A stretch of DNA of 64,000 nucleotides, taken from NCBI GenBank assembly GCA_016297695.1, contig JAEDGC010000001.1, forward strand, positions 23,161 through 87,160. The letters are read 5' to 3'. The notes under the pieces are model-generated. The model saw nothing but the letters and a program-made list of their open reading frames with translations, was not told the DNA's origin and ran no database searches. Source of the DNA: Bacilli bacterium (GTDB lineage Bacteria; Bacillota_I; Bacilli_A; RF39; UBA660). This document shows positions 3,101 to 20,784 of the stretch, piece after piece. Every line of letters starts with the position of its first letter. Position 1 is the stretch's first letter. A program made the position numbers and the translations under genes.

Positions 3101-3392
3101 TTATTATAGATATAGTGATACTGATTATAGATTAATAAAAATAAAAAATACCGAAATTACTCAACCCATCTATGAAATTAAACAATATATAATGATTGCA
3201 GGTAATGGAATCTATGATAATAGATCTAATGCTTTAGAATTAGATTATCAAGGTAATTTACAAACATCTGGAGATATTATAAATGGTGATGGGGTAGTGC
3301 TTGGAGCATATATATCTAATGAAAAAATTGATGAAATATGGGATAATATTTTTGGAGGAGGTAGAGTATGCTTAGTACAGACGAGTTCTTAA
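192..3392 (+). CDS. tail fibre / adhesin-like protein with YadA-head-type repeats
   Basis: 1066-aa ORF with an AAAGGAG RBS. Many degenerate tandem repeats of the form (N/S)HAEG.xT.A.G (aa ~50-75 and ~490-690), followed by NxxxG-rich repeats. Lies in the fibre/lysis block. Confidence 0.7.
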   Translation: MADEAFLDGEGLTQVVTWLRDKDVGQYTDESKTNEIFNDYSNNKAKGNYNHAEGYNTQAIGSYNHAEGYNTTAGSYQNAYYRYCGNPILQVESGTSIISKATIDSNNYQISGKTGAFSLDSIELPEDFTVGKYSSELQIFDYNYVFNNDNWYTTQITNIETTDELNSLFTTLFENNSNINRKIYMVSEEPTEVSDDLYIYNGAIYCSAFMDNKITVSEDTINVLTTINTLESQKDNYITTLYVNESNTFGFIYYLADDSLILFKQEYDINNIITIINLTNNYGTFKKIDKVYQSAPTITTQLGLVCGTSFNSTTTPQYYGKSGKWEYLNEYNVVLTITESDRTVYDSEGNPTDVVNPSLIVTYNDEILINKTVDFATDTLDFIYNKNEEEIFNWYLDGSIVDLSEYGISVENQQEYDIISFELNKVYISYDSEGNQIEKNQEEFYNDNHASGTTSYIFNGTASGNWVKIVKDGAIGNTTYCHAEGYKTIATGTGAHVEGGCYKEDGTENTSRVISISSLEPDGEPTEVEIISSRADGIQAHAEGTQTYAYGYSSHAEGYQTIVTGPDSHAEGIQTQVAGSGCHAEGLQTKVHAGTANHVEGLSLSIADGTANHAEGMFNTISNGLANHNEGMSNIISSTGNCNHAEGNGHYIYNGTANHAEGYGHHINETTAGDYNSVRNYANTTDGNYASDICCGTNKVKGCKYTSVSGQSNTVTNDYASIISGMNNTTEGGWRNIIGGDRNELQGGLNIISGQGNKVSGNVNIIVANGETVNGSYNLISGLNSTALKGDGNIIGGTAHSNCSGDNNLIFGDVNSVSGNQNIIGGTSNKIVTIEKNKYSRDNAIFGSINSIYSGESSIIGGTYNTSYNSFQFIFGTSLQSGNTDTINSARSALVIGECNENCFTDTEYVLTNDTIYYDTHSKTYYYIKNDEYYKIEILSNTTPNSNWYELVNDEYIKTQDKEMIENKEYYYRYSDTDYRLIKIKNTEITQPIYEIKQYIMIAGNGIYDNRSNALELDYQGNLQTSGDIINGDGVVLGAYISNEKIDEIWDNIFGGGRVCLVQTSS

Positions 3393-3631
3393 ATATAGAA
3401 GGGTTTACTCATACCCTCGAAAAAATAAAGTCAATAACAAGCACTTATATGTATGAACAGGGAGTTGCTGCAAATATCTGGGAGATTAATCATAATATGG
3501 GTAAATTTCCTTCTGTTACGGTAGTTGATAGTGCAGGAAGTGTAGTAATTGGCGCAATTGAATATATAGATATAAATAATTTAAAAATTACTTTTAATAG
3601 TAGTTTTGGTGGAAAAGCTTATTTGAATTAA
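3368..3631 (+). CDS. small hypothetical protein of the fibre module
   Basis: 87-aa ORF overlapping the preceding stop. No motif recognised. Confidence 0.4.
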   Translation: MLSTDEFLNIEGFTHTLEKIKSITSTYMYEQGVAANIWEINHNMGKFPSVTVVDSAGSVVIGAIEYIDINNLKITFNSSFGGKAYLN

Positions 3632-17703: not shown

Positions 17704-17740
17704 GTATATATATTATAACAAAAATTTTTTAAAATTTCAA
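17704..17740 (-). promoter_or_regulatory. class-2 promoter, copy 3
   Basis: TTGAAA-TTTTAAAAAATTTTTGT-TATAAT upstream of tRNA-Met. Confidence 0.6.
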
Positions 17741-18177
17741 AAGTAACAAATGTAATCAACATCTTCGTCATAACTTGGAGTTTCAAAATTTTTATACATT
17801 CTTTCAATAACTGACTCAGGAACGACTCTTTGTCTATTTGAATTTCTTTCAAGAGCAGTATCAATTGGAGTTTTACAATAGCAAATTACATTATTACAAT
17901 TGTATTCTCTACCAATATCAGTAATAATTTTTCTATCTTTTTTTCGGATATTGGTAGCATCAAAAATAACATTCTCACCAAGAGATAAATAATTTCTTAT
18001 TCTTGAATAAGCAAGAGAAAAAACTTCTTTGCCATTGCCTTGAATGTTTTCATCTCCGTATAATTCTTCTCTAATGGAATCAGTTGAAACAATGTTACCA
18101 TTGAAAAATTTTGCAATTGTAGATTTACCACTTGCGGGGATGCCGCACATTATGATTAAATTCATTCTATGCTCCAC
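17737..18177 (-). CDS. polynucleotide 5'-kinase-like P-loop protein (T4 Pnk kinase-domain-like)
   Basis: Walker A GIPASGKST, then STDSIRE (D-x-x-R spacing as in T4 Pnk D35/R38), FDATNIR, and RNSNRQRVVPESVIERMYKNF (compare T4 [22 protein letters not shown]). No phosphatase domain. The real start may be ATG 18165. Confidence 0.65.
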   Translation of the reverse strand: MEHRMNLIIMCGIPASGKSTIAKFFNGNIVSTDSIREELYGDENIQGNGKEVFSLAYSRIRNYLSLGENVIFDATNIRKKDRKIITDIGREYNCNNVICYCKTPIDTALERNSNRQRVVPESVIERMYKNFETPSYDEDVDYICYF

Positions 18178-18395
18178 TTTCTAAATAAGTTGATTATTTC
18201 CTCAGAAGGTTCAGAATCAAACTCAACAGTAAGAACGCCAGATAAATCAATAGAGAAAATTCCCATAATTGACTTACCATCTACCGCATAGTGCATATTC
18301 CTAACAGTGATTCTACCATTAAACTTGTTTGCCGCATCAACAAAAGACTTAACATCATCTATTGTATTCAGCTTCATTTTAAATAAACTCTGCAT
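18162..18395 (-). CDS. HPr-like small protein lacking the catalytic His
   Basis: 77 aa. ...KLNTIDDVKSFVDAA...VDGKSIMGIFSIDLS..LTVEF... resembles the clostridial HPr-family-like proteins (from memory). Confidence 0.45.
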   Translation of the reverse strand: MQSLFKMKLNTIDDVKSFVDAANKFNGRITVRNMHYAVDGKSIMGIFSIDLSGVLTVEFDSEPSEEIINLFRKWSIE

Positions 18396-18416
18396 TTTTT
18401 TAACTCCTTTCTTAAT

Positions 18417-18455
18417 TTCTATAAATATTATAACAAAAATTTTTTAAAATTTCAA
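18417..18455 (-). promoter_or_regulatory. class-2 promoter, copy 4
   Basis: TTGAAATTTTAAAAAATTTTTGTTATAATATTTATAGAA upstream of 18395. Confidence 0.6.
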
Positions 18456-18460
18456 TAAAC

Positions 18461-18498
18461 AAAAAAAGGGGAAGAGCAGAAAACTAAGTTCTGCTCTT
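18461..18498 (-). terminator. terminator closing the upstream tRNA transcription unit
   Basis: Stem AAGAGCAGAA/TTCTGCTCTT followed by CCCCTTTTTTT on the minus strand. Confidence 0.7.
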
Positions 18499-18522
18499 TA
18501 AGAAAAGGAATGTTGTTACAAG

Positions 18523-18611
18523 TGGCGGCGGACAAAGGTGTCGATCCCTATAGGAGTAAACCTACGCATTGTTTTCAAGACAAGCCTAATTGCCGAATTA
18601 GTTTATCCGCC
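18523..18611 (-). tRNA. tRNA-Ser (UGA), type II, atypical T-loop
   Basis: GGCGGAT...loop CTTGAAA...variable arm TAGG/CCTA...ATCGACA T-loop...GTCCGCC-G-CCA. The anticodon stem and T-arm are weak. Confidence 0.5.
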
Positions 18612-19004
18612 GTATATAAAACTGGACTGTCTTTTGATTATTTACTTCGACTTGCGAGCAGTCCAGAGTAGTAAATAACCTCTTGTTAGTCATCTGCTAC
18701 GAAGCAGCTCGGCGGCAGTATATATCATTTCAACTTACCGCAGGCTGCAAGCCTTTTTCTAACAAAAATATTAAGAAGAAGCCTTCAGCCATAGGAGCAG
18801 CTTCCATGCATCCTTACTAACGAGATGTGTAAGGACATTAGATTATGATTCTTTTAAAATTAATGGTTGTCCTATCCTTGAGAAGTTGCTGTTATGCTCG
18901 CTTGATAGATGACTATTTAAGCTACACTGTTACACCATTCAATAAAATTTAAAAATCGACTCTAATGTTTACTACCCGCCTATATTCACAGCTCTTAATA
19001 TTGT
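18612..19004 (-). ncRNA. 393-nt structured RNA with group-I-intron-like P, Q, R, S strings and no ORF
   Basis: Minus-strand order: CCTGCGGTAAGTTGAAAT (18744-18727), ACTGCCGCCGAGC (18719-18707), GCAGATGACTAACAAGAGG (18697-18679), AAAAGACAGTCCAG (18635-18622). GCGG/CCGC and GACT/AGTC can pair as P4 and P7. No exons identified. Confidence 0.4.
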
Positions 19005-19099
19005 TGGCGGAGGCGGACGGACTTGAACCATCACACCAGTATAAACTGATTACTCTCGGTTTAGCAAACCGATCCCTTACCAATTAGGGTTACGCCTCC
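19005..19099 (-). tRNA. tRNA-Ser (GCU), type II
   Basis: GGAGGCG...TCGGT-TTGCTAA-ACCGA-(long variable arm)-GATGG-TTCAAGT-CCGTC-CGCCTCC-G-CCA. Confidence 0.75.
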
Positions 19100-19104
19100 A
19101 TATA

Positions 19105-19181
19105 TGGTACGGAGATTGAGATTCGAACTCAAGATCTTCTGAATATCAGTCAGATGCTTTAACCAACTAAGCCATCTCCGC
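19105..19181 (-). tRNA. tRNA-Ile (GAU)
   Basis: GCGGAGA-TG-GCTT-AGTTGGTTA-AAGC-A-TCTGA-CTGATAT-TCAGA-..-TTGAG-TTCGAAT-CTCAA-TCTCCGT-A-CCA. Confidence 0.8.
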
Positions 19182-19186
19182 ATATT

Positions 19187-19263
19187 TGGTACGAGTGCTG
19201 GGATTCGAACCCAGAAACGGAGGTACTTGAAGCCTCTGTGTCTACCAATTGCACCACACTCGT
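19187..19263 (-). tRNA. tRNA with CAA anticodon, Leu-like D-arm but short variable loop
   Basis: ACGAGTG-TG-GTG-CAATTGGTAGA-CAC-A-GAGGC-TTCAAGT-ACCTC-CGTTT-CTGGG-TTCGAAT-CCCAG-CACTCGT-A-CCA. C31-A39 mismatch. Class-I architecture. Confidence 0.55.
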
Positions 19264-19363
19264 ATATTAAAGTATGTCTTTCTGTTGTGATTACGGTTAC
19301 GGGTGGAAAACATACAAACCTAATAACCTACTTGTTTTAAAGTTGCAAGACTCAACTTATTAA

Positions 19364-19463
19364 TCAACAGGCATGGATTTGCACCATACATAACAACATC
19401 GTTTGTCTTGTTCTGTATATAAATAACACTCATACTAGCGTCTACCTATTCCGCCACTGTTGA
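19364..19463 (-). pseudogene. aberrant Leu-type tRNA-like gene (100 nt)
   Basis: TCAACAG-TG-GCGGAATAGGTAGACGC (Leu-type D-arm) ... TATGG-TGCAAAT-CCATG-(C)-CTGTTGA. No anticodon arm could be folded. No CCA. Confidence 0.3.
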
Positions 19464-19490
19464 TTATTATTCTATTTCTAATATTTCTTT

Positions 19491-19616
19491 TGGTGCGGAG
19501 AATGGGATTCGAACCCACACTGAATGGATTTTTGGTGCGAAATATTGGGGTTGAACCAATTTAATGATACCGATCATTTCGCAAGTCCATTGCCTCTGCC
19601 GTTGGGCTATCTCCAC
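19491..19616 (-). tRNA. tRNA (anticodon UAA after insert removal) interrupted after U34 by a 50-nt minihelix
   Basis: GTGGAGA-TA-GCCC-AACGGCAG-AGGC-A-ATGGA-CTT[insert]AAAA-TCCAT-TCAGT-GTGGG-TTCGAAT-CCCAT-TCTCCGC-A-CCA. Confidence 0.65.
19533..19582 (-). ncRNA. nested acceptor/T-arm minihelix with CCA
   Basis: GCGAAAT-(GATCGGTATC-ATTAA)-ATTGG-TTCAACC-CCAAT-ATTTCGC-A-CCA. Perfect 7-bp acceptor and 5-bp T-stem. Confidence 0.6.
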
Positions 19617-19650
19617 ATATTATAAAAGCTAAGATTATTATACTTAGCTT

Positions 19651-19728
19651 TGGTGACGGAAACAGGATTTGAACTTGTAAAAACCTGCTCACTAAGACAG
19701 GCGTGTATGCCAATTCCACCATTCCGCC
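19651..19728 (-). tRNA. tRNA with an 8-nt anticodon loop (CUUAGUGA; UAG-type)
   Basis: GGCGGAA-TG-GTG..CAC-G-CCTGT-CTTAGTGA-GCAGG-TTTTT-ACAAG-TTCAAAT-CCTGT-TTCCGTC-A-CCA. One extra U relative to a canonical CUUAGGA loop. Class-I variable loop. Confidence 0.5.
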
Positions 19729-19735
19729 ATATATT

Positions 19736-19810
19736 ATTTGAGTTTTAACCTGTTAAACTATCAACCACCTCCATGAGGCAGTTGAGTGAGATTCGAACTC
19801 ACATTCAAAT
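19736..19810 (-). ncRNA. circularly permuted tRNA mimic (closed acceptor, open anticodon stem)
   Basis: ATTTG-AAT-GTGAG-TTCGAAT-CTCAC-TCAACTG-[CCTC-ATG-GAGG cap]-TGGTTGA-TA-GTTT-AACAGGTTA-AAAC-T-CAAAT. All tRNA helices are present, in the order 3' half, cap, 5' half. Confidence 0.55.
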
Positions 19811-20047
19811 AATATTTTTTTCGTATGGCAATGTATTAAACCTCTGCAGTGTACTTCTACAGCGTGCAACTCATACACCAACCCCATTTTCGGCTATATC
19901 CATACTTGTCCAGACAAACAACTTATAAGGAGTTGCCAACCTTCAACTTTCGTATGAGCACGGGTGAGTATCCGGACTATCACCTTTATTTTGTGCTATT
20001 AGTTATAATCCAGACTACACCACGAGGAGGTTGCACTATCGTAGTCC
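19811..20047 (-). ncRNA. about 240-nt structured RNA 5' of the permuted tRNA mimic
   Basis: R-like TCAGAGGACTACGA and S-like AAAGGTGATAGTCCGG (GGACTA/TAGTCC can pair). Long-range helix CGTGCTCATAC/GTATGAG..GCACG. GAAA loops. A CCTTATAAG...TATGG receptor-like motif. Confidence 0.4.
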
Positions 20048-20784
20048 TCTGAGTGAAGAGAATCGAACTCTTGTTTCCGGATCCAGTAAAAAATACTCTT
20101 ATAAAACAGGGAACTCCTTATATTTCCAATAATAATTATAAGCCATTTTATTTTTTGCTATGCTCTCCTTAATATATCTTATTTGTCTATCGTCAAACTT
20201 TTGTTTTAACTCTTCTGTTGTCCATAATTTTTCTTCCTCTAAATCAGAATAAGAAATAAATCTGTTATCAGAGTACTTTTTTATAGGAGTTTGAGTTATT
20301 ATTGATTGAATCACATTATCTATTAAATAATCTGAAGCGATAGACATTGTAGATTGTATTCCTTTTTTAGGTGATTTAATCCGTAAATACTTTTCAGTTG
20401 AAACTTCACCAATAGGAATTAAAAATCCGTATTCTTTCCAAGAAGTATAAAAATAATCAACTTCTTTTTCTGAATAAGTATATTTTGTTGTTTTTTGAGT
20501 ATTAGTTGTACTTCTCGTAGCAGACATTTTTAATACACCTTCATCTTCTGAATAAGAAGATGCTTTACACTGTATTTTATATAATTTATCATTAATATCA
20601 ACGATTAAATCATATCGACAAGAACCGCTAAATGGAATACTACAATAATACCCTCTTTTTTGAAAATCTAAGATACATTGGAGTTCATTTACATCGCCAC
20701 GAATTAAAGTGCTATCCATAGCAAACTGTTTTATATTAAAGTTTTTCTACCAAATCCGGGGGCTTACCTCTAACCGACACCCAG
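20048..20784 (-). tRNA. tRNA-Pro (UGG) interrupted in the anticodon loop by a 666-nt ORF-bearing insert
   Basis: 5' half CTGGGTG-TC-GGTT-AGAGGTA-AGCC-C-CCGGA-TTTGG. 3' half GA-TCCGG-AAAC-AAGAG-TTCGATT-CTCTT-CACTCAG-A. C1-G72/A73 as in bacterial tRNA-Pro. No CCA. Confidence 0.65.
20099..20719 (-). CDS. PD-(D/E)XK homing endonuclease (I-Ssp6803I-like, from memory)
   Basis: 206 aa. GDVNELQ...RYDLIVD...YKIQCK gives the E/D...QxK catalytic pattern of the intron-encoded PD-(D/E)XK family. Fills almost the whole insert in tRNA-Pro. Confidence 0.55.
   Translation of the reverse strand: MDSTLIRGDVNELQCILDFQKRGYYCSIPFSGSCRYDLIVDINDKLYKIQCKASSYSEDEGVLKMSATRSTTNTQKTTKYTYSEKEVDYFYTSWKEYGFLIPIGEVSTEKYLRIKSPKKGIQSTMSIASDYLIDNVIQSIITQTPIKKYSDNRFISYSDLEEEKLWTTEELKQKFDDRQIRYIKESIAKNKMAYNYYWKYKEFPVL

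Follow-up and report, generated by a model that had tools for sequence, protein, structure and literature searches.

What is a tRNA-shaped sequence doing between two anticodon bases of another tRNA, and can the interrupted gene still give rise to a tRNA? The question is raised by a tRNA island in a 64,000-nt stretch of contig JAEDGC010000001.1 (assembly GCA_016297695.1, positions 23,161 to 87,160; hereafter the window, with positions counted from its first letter), whose tRNA genes all lie on the minus strand at approximately 15.0–20.8 kb. Portal similarity groups the window's phage with human-gut relatives of SPbeta-like Bacillota phages. At 19616..19491 (−) the island holds a tRNA(UAA) gene with a 50-nt insert, 19582..19533, between U34 and A35. 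We find that this element is real, recurrent, under selection at the RNA level, and undescribed in the literature that we searched: a full-text search returned no account of one tRNA nested within another, nor of phage introns that resemble tRNAs. Very probably the insert is a conserved, RNA-structured intervening element, and the interrupted tRNA is likely restored at the RNA level. The evidence seems to us evenly balanced on the fuller proposal, that the element mimics a tRNA in reduced form, that among the tRNA-shaped inserts of phage anticodon loops it is the smallest family member and free of an endonuclease, and that it is an undescribed type of intervening sequence, which would be spliced by the steps set out below.

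The outer gene is recognizable as a tRNA both with and without its insert. A sequence-only reading of the locus had proposed an outer tRNA with a nested minihelix of acceptor stem, T arm, and CCA, and its letters for 19616..19491 (−) are base-for-base correct on re-reading. The 5′ exon (19583..19616, −; 34 nt) comprises the 5′ strand of the acceptor stem, the D arm, the 5′ strand of the anticodon stem, and C32, U33, and U34, ending in ATGGA-CTT. The 3′ exon (19491..19532, −; 42 nt) starts with AAAA-TCCAT and comprises A35, A36, A37, and A38, the 3′ strand of the anticodon stem, a 5-nt variable loop, the T arm, the 3′ strand of the acceptor stem, and ACCA. As that reading had claimed, removal of the insert restores a CUUAAAA loop, the predicted spliced junction being GGCAAUGGACUU joined to AAAAUCCAUUCAG (core GGACUU/AAAAUCC), and ARAGORN calls the resulting 76-nt cloverleaf a tRNA(UAA). 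With the insert left in place, the Rfam tRNA model (RF00005) scores 43.2 bits on 19494–19616 (−) (gathering threshold 29, E = 7.5e-6), aligning these 123 nt with model positions 1–71 end to end and treating the middle as an insertion. The outer gene thus has a covariance-model cloverleaf, a 7-nt anticodon loop with U33, and uninterrupted homologues. Its anticodon UAA makes it nominally a tRNA-Leu, as a partial homologue in Pseudomonas phage ZC03 is annotated; the long type II variable arm typical of bacterial tRNA-Leu is absent, the variable loop being 5 nt (TCAGT). The only blastn match of the 126 nt is 30 nt of tRNA-Leu in Pseudomonas phages, and megablast of the whole tRNA island against GenBank phages returned no match.

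The insert itself (19533..19582, −) reads GCGAAAT GATCGGTATC ATTAA ATTGG TTCAACC CCAAT ATTTCGC ACCA. An acceptor-like helix of 7 bp pairs its first bases (GCGAAAT, 19576..19582, −) with ATTTCGC (19537..19543, −) and encloses a D-like hairpin of 3 bp with a 4-nt loop (GAT-CGGT-ATC, 19566..19575, −) and a T-like arm of 5 bp with a 7-nt loop (ATTGG-TTCAACC-CCAAT, 19544..19560, −); the ACCA tail (19533..19536, −) follows, with the 3′ junction immediately after it. The 7-bp helix, the T-like arm, and the ACCA had all been read correctly from the letters, while the small D-like hairpin had been overlooked. In sequence the insert has the makings of a minihelix substrate for RNase P and RNase Z: a 7-bp acceptor helix on a 5-bp T stem, a 7-nt loop, U-1, G+1:C72, a purine at 73, and a 3′ CCA. 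ARAGORN finds no tRNA in the 50 nt alone, which have no anticodon arm and so fail the four-arm cloverleaf test, and in an Rfam scan of 14900–20400 at E ≤ 1 the insert matches no family. The expectation that the locus would fold better than shuffled sequence is borne out moderately, at −35.8 kcal/mol for the 126 nt (z = −2.18) and −12.5 kcal/mol for the insert (z = −2.72). The minimum-free-energy fold of the 126 nt recovers all stems of the outer cloverleaf and the inner closing helix; the two inner hairpins of the insert are absent from it and rest on covariation instead.

Uninterrupted homologues fix the boundaries of the insert. A search of IMG/VR phage loci with the 3′-terminal 25 nt of the 5′ exon returned 23 loci (L numbers below denote such loci and contigs): 19 are uninterrupted, with the loop CTTAAAA, two (L005 and L009) have the same interrupted architecture as the window, and two (L021 and L003) carry long inserts at the same U34/A35 bond. 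The CTTAAAA of the uninterrupted homologues places the insertion between U34 and A35, and the end bases of the 50-nt insert (first G, last A) leave its junctions no room to slide between flanks of T and A. ARAGORN's own parse of the interrupted gene, a tRNA-Ala(UGC) with intron i(38,50) after position 37, is rejected, since the homologues read CTTAAAA rather than CTTGCGA; the missing G3:U70 in the tRNA body also speaks against a tRNA-Ala. The long inserts of L021 (268 nt) and L003 (approximately 1 kb, with an HNH open reading frame, ORF) both end in G and contain the motifs CAGACTA and GATATAG, which we take to recall the R and S elements of group I introns; the Rfam group I model does not confirm that class, even at E ≤ 10.

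The same architecture recurs in many phage tRNA genes. In phage contigs we assembled 15 distinct nested inserts of 47–77 nt, lying in genes for tRNA-Leu, Gln, Glu, Lys, and a UAU tRNA, by means of a gapped pattern, a search with HNH homologues, a survey of introns called by ARAGORN, and a descriptor scan. In the last of these, 388 kb yielded 20 matches vs. approximately 2 in shuffled sequence. Inserts of 47–50 nt (hereafter minis) occur in short-arm tRNA(UAA) genes (window, L005/L009, L024, and L025/L058), in a type II tRNA-Leu(UAA) (47 nt, L140), in tRNA-Gln(UUG) (L140, L153–155, L141/L158, and L152/L156), and in a UUU tRNA (L143). The variants at U34/A35 of tRNA(UAA) in L005/L009, L024, and L025/L058 have unrelated helix sequences. 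Inserts of 62–67 nt have a stub in place of the anticodon arm (L159, L143, and L157). Complete nested tRNAs of 75–77 nt comprise one in tRNA-Lys of the window (17278..17204), a tRNA-Lys in a tRNA-Gln (L025), and a CUA suppressor in a UAU tRNA (L140/L141). Finally, inserts of approximately 860 nt in tRNA-Glu (window and L136) arrange acceptor helix, D arm, T arm, and tail around an HNH ORF. Along this size series (47–50, 62, 66–67, 75–77, and ~860 nt) the anticodon arm is lost and the acceptor helix, the elbow-like loops, and NCCA are kept.

Chance is a poor explanation for such a series, chiefly because the same form recurs with different sequences in many loci. It does so in independent assemblies from several metagenomes and in the Logan assembly of the window's own genome. 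The family has so far been seen only in large phage contigs, mostly from one gut-type metagenome. A scan of one metagenome gave 109 stretches, nearly all of them chance and only L058 real, and a scan of one genome gave 88, all chance, yielding neither a further family member nor a host. A covariance model (R1), run over 388 kb of related phage DNA, recovered no sequences other than those it was trained on and no mini standing on its own; the window insert scores 48.8 bits against it and, being a training sequence, hence shows family fit only. The sequence-only reading had taken the nested genes for a system rather than an accident, a view that the 15 distinct inserts, strong covariation, and precise presence/absence polymorphism (below) uphold. 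The three inserts of the window, which it had proposed to align with one another, do not group together: the nested tRNA in tRNA-Lys and the insert in tRNA-Glu share an AT-rich TAGTTTAA D arm, and the 50-nt insert belongs to the separate family of minis. Its rule that inserts follow CTT and start with G survives as a tendency and falls as a general rule, since CTTT, CTTTC, and CTTAT precede inserts too, and the first base of four inserts is C.

Junctions are nonetheless strongly patterned across the family. Insertion sites are 34/35, 35/36, or 36/37, the base before the insert (−1) is U in 14 of the 15 distinct inserts, and the first pair (+1:72) is G–C in 11 and C–G in 4 (15/15 G–C or C–G). 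All 15 end in an NCCA tail (ACCA in 13), and 13/15 have A at N73. Removal of the insert always leaves a normal 7-nt anticodon loop with the expected anticodon. A pair of tRNA-Gln inserts at 34/35, in L159 (62 nt) and L140 (48 nt), have closing helices GTCAGAT/ATCTGGC and GTCAGAC/GTCTGGC, which differ by one compensatory pair, and unrelated interiors, which suggests that insert interiors are swapped while the junction helix stays.

Base pairing, rather than sequence, is what the minis have in common. We fitted seven of them by hand to the structure (7-bp helix, 3-bp/4-nt hairpin, 5-bp/7-nt hairpin, and 4-nt tail) in an alignment, A2, that was padded with N and then left unchanged by MAFFT, whose own alignment had misplaced the diverged minis. 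In A2, 98.1% of cells are paired vs. 62% in shuffles, 14/15 pairs changed on both sides, and the covariation score is reached by 0/500 shuffles, figures that are indicative and not probabilities, as a caution against our reading, because A2 leans towards the structure and its rows for the window and L005 come from closely related phages. All seven pairs of the acceptor-like helix covary (100% of cells paired), as do all three of the D-like hairpin (GAT/ATC, GTT/AAC, TTC/GAA, AGC/GCT) and four of the five in the T-like arm, the fifth being an invariant G–C. Sliding the partners by 1–3 columns lowers pairing to 34–43%, and the helices are plain in each single mini sequence, apart from the A2 statistics. 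Over all 15 inserts the closing helix has 94 Watson–Crick pairs, 10 G·U pairs, no A·C pair, and 1 other pair; because G·U pairs are present and A·C pairs are not, the tRNA-sense transcript is the selected molecule. Unpaired bases invariant in the seven minis are the third base (G) of the small hairpin loop, C-A at positions 3–4 of the 7-nt loop, and the tail; in a variant from L153, A replaces the small-loop G. The small-loop G and the loop C and A correspond to G19, C56, and R57 of the tRNA elbow. A DNA hairpin transposon or miniature inverted-repeat transposable element (IS200/IS605-type or REP-like) is disfavored by 10 G·U vs. 0 A·C, by the lack of a target duplication (L140 vs. L141), and by the varying flanks CTT, CTTT, CTTTC, and CTTAT.

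Presence and absence of a mini can be compared directly in two phage genomes. L140 and L141 are 99.1% identical around a type II tRNA-Leu(UAA) that is intact in L141, while L140 has identical exons plus the 47-nt mini and no target duplication, which is the precise presence/absence pattern of a mobile intron, here in a member of the family. A free-standing homologue of the window's intron-borne HNH endonuclease lies 1 kb from this tRNA-Leu in both L140 and L141, and another lies in the L143 island; in the window the HNH ORF sits inside the insert of tRNA-Glu, and the 50-nt copy carries no endonuclease gene. The L140/L141 pattern resembles homing assisted by an endonuclease, possibly in its collaborative form, where the target site is protected by an intron that has no endonuclease of its own. 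At the DNA level the insert would probably spread, or shield its site, together with the HNH endonucleases of the island.

The tRNA exons around the insert have changed far less than the insert. Between the window and L005 the tRNA(UAA) exons differ at 1 position in 76 (5′ exon 1/34, 3′ exon 0/42), the neighboring tRNA-Ile at 0 in 77, and the neighboring tRNA-Ser at 1 in 95. Over the 50 nt of the insert we count 5 substitutions and 1 indel, with all pairs kept (C–G to U·G, A–U to G·U, and A–U to G–C). Five interrupted tRNA(UAA) alleles have full cloverleaf pairing, with differing, compensatory acceptor and T stems, and in L025 and L058, which carry an identical mini, the exons differ at 7 positions, all off the junctions and including one compensatory T-stem change. 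Sequence comparison therefore favors an interrupted tRNA(UAA) gene that would still work despite its insert.

How might the tRNA be restored? Features kept on size reduction (the 7-bp helix, the elbow-like loop pair, and NCCA) are what tRNA end-processing enzymes recognize: RNase P reads the acceptor/T stack, the elbow, U-1, G+1, and the pairing of RCCA with its L15 loop, RNase Z and the CCA-adding enzyme read likewise, and minihelices of acceptor stem, T arm, and CCA are classical model substrates of RNase P. From its shape, we infer that the insert is recognized by RNase P and the CCA-adding enzyme. In the route that we propose, host RNase P would cut the precursor at the first pair of the inner helix (U-1, G+1–C72, A73, CCA), leaving a 3′-OH on U34, and a second endonuclease would cut directly after the inner CCA, as Thermotoga maritima RNase Z or Escherichia coli RNase BN do on CCA-containing precursors, giving A35 a 5′-phosphate. 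Ends with 3′-OH and 5′-phosphate are substrates of ATP-dependent ligases; if the 3′ cut instead left a 5′-OH on A35, a kinase encoded in the island could phosphorylate it. A phage ligase of the Rnl5 type would then join U34 to A35 and restore the anticodon UAA. We place this specific route, RNase P, a cut after CCA, and Rnl5, at or barely short of an even balance, and regard as slightly more tentative the general statement that gut phages of Bacillota carry unrecognized mobile tRNA-mimic introns, excised by host end-processing enzymes and sealed by a phage Rnl5 ligase.

Genes for the rejoining steps lie close by. No RNA ligase was found among the approximately 40 window ORFs or by tblastn, and one is present just outside the window: a 368-aa RNA ligase gene 1.5–2.6 kb upstream of window position 1 (L315 50–1156, −, in the Logan assembly of the window's genome). 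Its product matches Pfam RNA_ligase at 75.9 bits (cut-off 27) and the PHA02142 OB-fold at 54.2 bits, among solved structures the Naegleria Rnl5 ligase is nearest to it (E = 2.4e-21), and it has the nucleotidyltransferase domain and N-terminal OB fold of Rnl5 (DraRnl/NgrRnl). An orthologue with 66% identity is present in both other phages with the same mini, and a second type of ligase (TIGR02306-like, DRB0094-like) occurs in four contigs that have other minis. The tRNA island itself encodes a kinase-only Pnkp homologue (17737..18177, −; AAA_33, 3e-24; bacterial Pnkp kinase domain, 7.4e-19; PSTK, 1.3e-19). A kinase without a phosphatase would suit the route if the 3′ cut left a 5′-OH while RNase P supplied a 3′-OH. 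The Rnl5-type ligase and the island kinase are, on their sequences, candidates for rejoining the exons, a point that the sequence-only reading had not taken up.

The island's surroundings hold further genes and motifs of RNA processing. A DUF2828/DUF7788 protein of 484 aa (13369–14823, −; phrog_850, "RNA-binding protein") flanks the island, as it does in L136, L140, L152, and L021; it may be an RNA-repair partner of the Ro60/TROVE type and, with kinase and ligase, may form an RNA-repair gene set. A search for relatives of this neighbor gene returned nothing. A candidate HDV-like (theta-type) ribozyme lies at 15027–15083 (−), directly after a CCA-less tRNA-Gln (RF02682, 30 bits, E = 0.012, below gathering), and its core string AACCTCCTCGTGGTG recurs at approximately 19990–20047 (−), right after an interrupted, CCA-less tRNA-Pro-like gene. 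The DRB0094-family ligase is 140-fold enriched in phages with HDV-like ribozymes beside tRNAs, an enrichment that was left unexplained (PMC10879173).

Several points weigh against splicing as we propose it. The cut after CCA is the weakest step of the model, because it would depend on the RNase Z of the host, and that of Bacillus subtilis is blocked by CCA; moreover, we know of no bacterial enzyme obliged to cut exactly after an encoded CCA ahead of structured RNA. Phage ligase and kinase genes are conventionally explained as repair after host anticodon nucleases, and characterized Rnl5 ligases seal nicks in duplex RNA, not breaks in anticodon loops. In most minis the 7-nt loop departs from the canonical T loop (GGCAGCA is an example), GCAA is the end of the HNH-bearing orthologue in L136, and the interrupted tRNA-Pro-like gene of the window (below) has an insert without CCA and without an obvious T arm. 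As for the exons, the identical insert of L025 and L058 suggests recent transfer, in which case exon integrity there may predate the insertion, and phage tRNAs are dispensable, such that a dead gene could linger for some time. Transcription, cleavage, and ligation of the interrupted gene are all steps that we infer.

Among other explanations, the insert could be a selfish, tRNA-derived mobile DNA element that is never spliced and inactivates dispensable tRNA genes, its shape inherited or kept for its own propagation and the exons intact through recency. Its precise presence or absence in genomes that are 99% identical, the identical insert in the diverged exons of L025 and L058, and the HNH and PD-(D/E)XK genes in and around these tRNAs would all follow, and phage tRNAs are accessory. 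We nonetheless consider it unlikely: between the window and L005 the insert is approximately 12% diverged while the exons, at 1.3%, match intact neighboring tRNAs, and five interrupted alleles of diverged lineages keep perfect cloverleaves with compensatory changes. Homing needs no RNA helix, yet the helices covary with G·U and no A·C, and a DNA parasite would have no reason to keep processing determinants such as NCCA in 15/15 inserts. Those determinants could also serve a processing cassette whose products are a CCA-ended minihelix and/or tRNA halves, acting as decoys or inhibitors against anticodon nucleases, CCA-targeting toxins, or tRNA-sensing defenses. The insert has all that is needed for release as a stable minihelix with a CCA end. 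Others among the nested inserts are whole tRNAs that seem functional (the CUA suppressor is one), in which release of the inner RNA is clearly intended, and the insertion sites are bonds cut by known anticodon nucleases. Such a role is nevertheless improbable. The minihelix stems share no sequence, implying no conserved identity set for a synthetase or toxin; no free-standing minis occur in the 388 kb, though they would be a simpler way to make the product; and the loop parts always sum to a 7-nt loop with the expected anticodon, which matters only on rejoining.

Rejoining could also proceed by another route, through an unrecognized endonuclease that reads the junction of helix and internal loop (leaving 2′,3′-cyclic phosphate and 5′-OH, for RtcB or for kinase and ligase) or through self-catalysis. 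The island kinase implies 5′-OH ends, the relatives bearing HNH and PD-(D/E)XK genes depart from the NCCA rule, and the route by RNase P and a cut after CCA has no assured enzyme for its 3′ cut. On the other hand, the insert has no bulge-helix-bulge geometry and matches no Rfam ribozyme or intron family at E ≤ 1, its conserved unpaired bases (the elbow-like G, the loop C-A, and NCCA) are tRNA recognition elements rather than a catalytic core, and no RtcB or EndA-like gene was found among the window ORFs scanned; we rate this route about as improbable as the cassette. Scarcely credible, finally, is a canonical-position intron in a different tRNA (Ala UGC), or a chance or assembly artefact. ARAGORN does report tRNA-Ala(tgc) i(38,50), a call that the CTTAAAA homologues and the missing G3:U70 contradict, and the architecture is found in independent assemblies.

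If excision and ligation occur as proposed, bacteria and phages would have here their first enzyme-dependent pathway for splicing tRNA. At present their tRNA introns are held to be self-splicing (group I, rarely group II), and protein-dependent tRNA splicing is seen as archaeal and eukaryal. The pathway would explain the enrichment of DRB0094-family ligases in tRNA-rich gut phages and, for phage RNA ligases and kinases, would add a housekeeping task to the repair of damage. It suggests an origin of split, permuted, and intron-containing tRNAs from mis-joined tRNA pieces, and such elements would be compact self-excising cassettes, usable for tRNA and small-RNA expression. Nested suppressor tRNAs in code-recoded relatives hint, in addition, at a tRNA supply gated by ligase expression. 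In L140/L141 (2582–2735) a complete CUA (amber suppressor) tRNA is nested at 36/37 of another tRNA, with the loop CTTATAA. Phage Phass-1, a metagenome-assembled phage with 36% portal identity to the window phage, is filed under a "code 15" (TAG recoded) clade, and because this relative belongs to a TAG-recoded clade, nesting could gate the supply of suppressor tRNA.

Three more interrupted tRNA genes lie in the window's island. In tRNA-Lys(UUU) (17163..17311, −) a complete 75-nt tRNA(UAA) of 25% GC (17204–17278) is nested at U34/U35, as seen by ARAGORN, a test of the spliced sequence, and the descriptor scan. The tRNA-Glu(UUC) gene (15619..16556, −) has an 862-nt insert (15659–16520), on removal of which the spliced sequence is a tRNA-Glu, and L136 has the orthologous layout; its HNH endonuclease ORF (15683–16474, −; phrog_10822, 1.6e-40) is preceded by acceptor helix and D arm and followed by T arm and ACCA. 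A CCA-less tRNA-Pro(UGG)-like gene (20048..20784, −), reported by ARAGORN with its intron option and parsed by homology to L005 1400–1473, has a 666-nt insert filled by a PD-(D/E)XK ORF (20099–20719; PD-(D/E)XK_5, 2.9e-23), such that only approximately 48 nt of the insert are noncoding. An 8-bp helix with a 1-nt tail closes this insert, which has neither CCA nor a clear T arm. It is not a group I intron, because it is too small outside the ORF, and may be a CCA-less relative of the nested-tRNA family.

Other features of the island are unusual tRNA-like sequences and repeats. Among them, 19651–19728 (−) is a tRNA with an 8-nt anticodon loop (CTTAGTGA), to which ARAGORN gives the anticodon "tagt" and no identity (Rfam 44.8 bits), and 19364–19463 (−) is a 100-nt tRNA-Leu-like element, 95% identical to L005 2806–2905. 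The latter has a perfect 7-bp acceptor helix (TCAACAG/CTGTTGA), a Leu-type D arm, the T loop TGCAAAT, approximately 45 nt of unrelated sequence where an anticodon arm would stand, and no CCA. Between tRNA-Ser and a small ORF lie approximately 460 nt without ORFs (18523–18980, −; L005 ~3116–3445), the last ~100 nt of which resemble a type II tRNA-Ser(UGA), with an odd T loop, ATCGACA, and a GCCA end, uncalled by ARAGORN and Rfam. AT-rich (25–35% GC), mitochondrial-like tRNAs at 16890–16965 (Trp, CCA), 17204–17278 (the nested tRNA(UAA)), and 17511–17584 (a weak Rfam tRNA, 31.6 bits), all (−), share the TAGTTTAA D arm, while their island neighbors have approximately 50% GC. A promoter-like block (TTGAAATTTTAAAAAATTTTTGTTATAATAT) is repeated ahead of tRNA groups and small ORFs at approximately 18430–18470, 17700–17735, and 16845–16880 (−), and stands nearly verbatim in L005 at 260–290, 1170–1200, and 1350–1380. 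The tRNA islands of L025 (11235–11365, 13778–13828) and L058 (2386–2470, 2831–2878) contain orphan Rfam motifs (RAGATH-33 at 121.5 bits, skipping-rope at 73.5, and DUF3800-XI at 59.6 and 43), one DUF3800-XI copy directly following a nested tRNA-Gln.

Compared with known systems, the anatomy of the insert fails the defining tests of every known intron class. For a group I intron, 50 nt are too short for the P3–P9 core (typically ≥200 nt), there is no Rfam match at E ≤ 1, and of the splice-site rule (U before, G last) the U is present after CTT while the last insert base is A (ACCA). Like the group I intron of tRNA-Leu(UAA) in cyanobacteria, plastids, and some phage and bacterial tRNAs, the insert occupies the U34/A35 bond, after U, in the same type of gene; it also shares presence/absence polymorphism and an association with homing endonucleases, and L021 and L003 have long inserts at this very site. 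Unlike those introns, its conserved features are tRNA-like, not catalytic. The bulge-helix-bulge intron (two 3-nt bulges and a 4-bp helix) is likewise excluded, since at the 5′ site, 3 nt from the anticodon stem, the 7-bp helix begins at once, and 4 nt separate the 3′ site from the helix on one side and from the stem on the other. As in archaeal and eukaryal tRNAs, we would have a short, protein-dependent, non-self-splicing intron in the anticodon loop, with exons predicted to need an RNA ligase, and archaeal introns too can carry other RNAs or endonuclease genes; the differences are the position (34/35, not 37/38) and the setting, a phage whose Bacillota-type hosts have no known splicing endonuclease. 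The ends that we predict (3′-OH and 5′-phosphate) and the ATP-dependent Rnl5 ligase also set the proposal apart from the RtcB pathway. No family of small self-cleaving ribozymes (hammerhead, twister, pistol, HDV-like, and others) matches the insert at E ≤ 1, the one HDV-like match lying elsewhere (15027–15083).

The closest parallels are found in RNA processing and repair. As in tRNA punctuation (mitochondrial transcripts, the MALAT1 mascRNA, plant t-elements, and herpesvirus tRNA-miRNA units), a tRNA-shaped module is predicted to recruit RNase P and RNase Z; there the flanks are simply released, whereas here they are tRNA halves that would need religation, and we know of no case of a tRNA-shaped processing signal inside an anticodon loop. 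With phage T4 tRNA repair (PrrC cleavage of tRNA-Lys, Pnkp, and Rnl1) the proposal shares a break in the anticodon loop and a predicted pairing of a phage ATP-dependent ligase with a polynucleotide kinase, and the tRNA-Lys(UUU), Glu, and Gln interrupted here are classic nuclease targets. Unlike in T4 repair, the break would be programmed in the gene, the ligase is of the Rnl5 type with an N-terminal OB-fold domain rather than Rnl1, and the kinase lacks a phosphatase domain. Split and permuted tRNA genes (Nanoarchaeum and Cyanidioschyzon) similarly have halves that are broken in the anticodon loop and joined after processing by way of flanking helices. Those genes use the bulge-helix-bulge endonuclease on halves that are separate or permuted; in the phage genes the halves are contiguous, and the RNA between them is itself, on our reading, a tRNA mimic.

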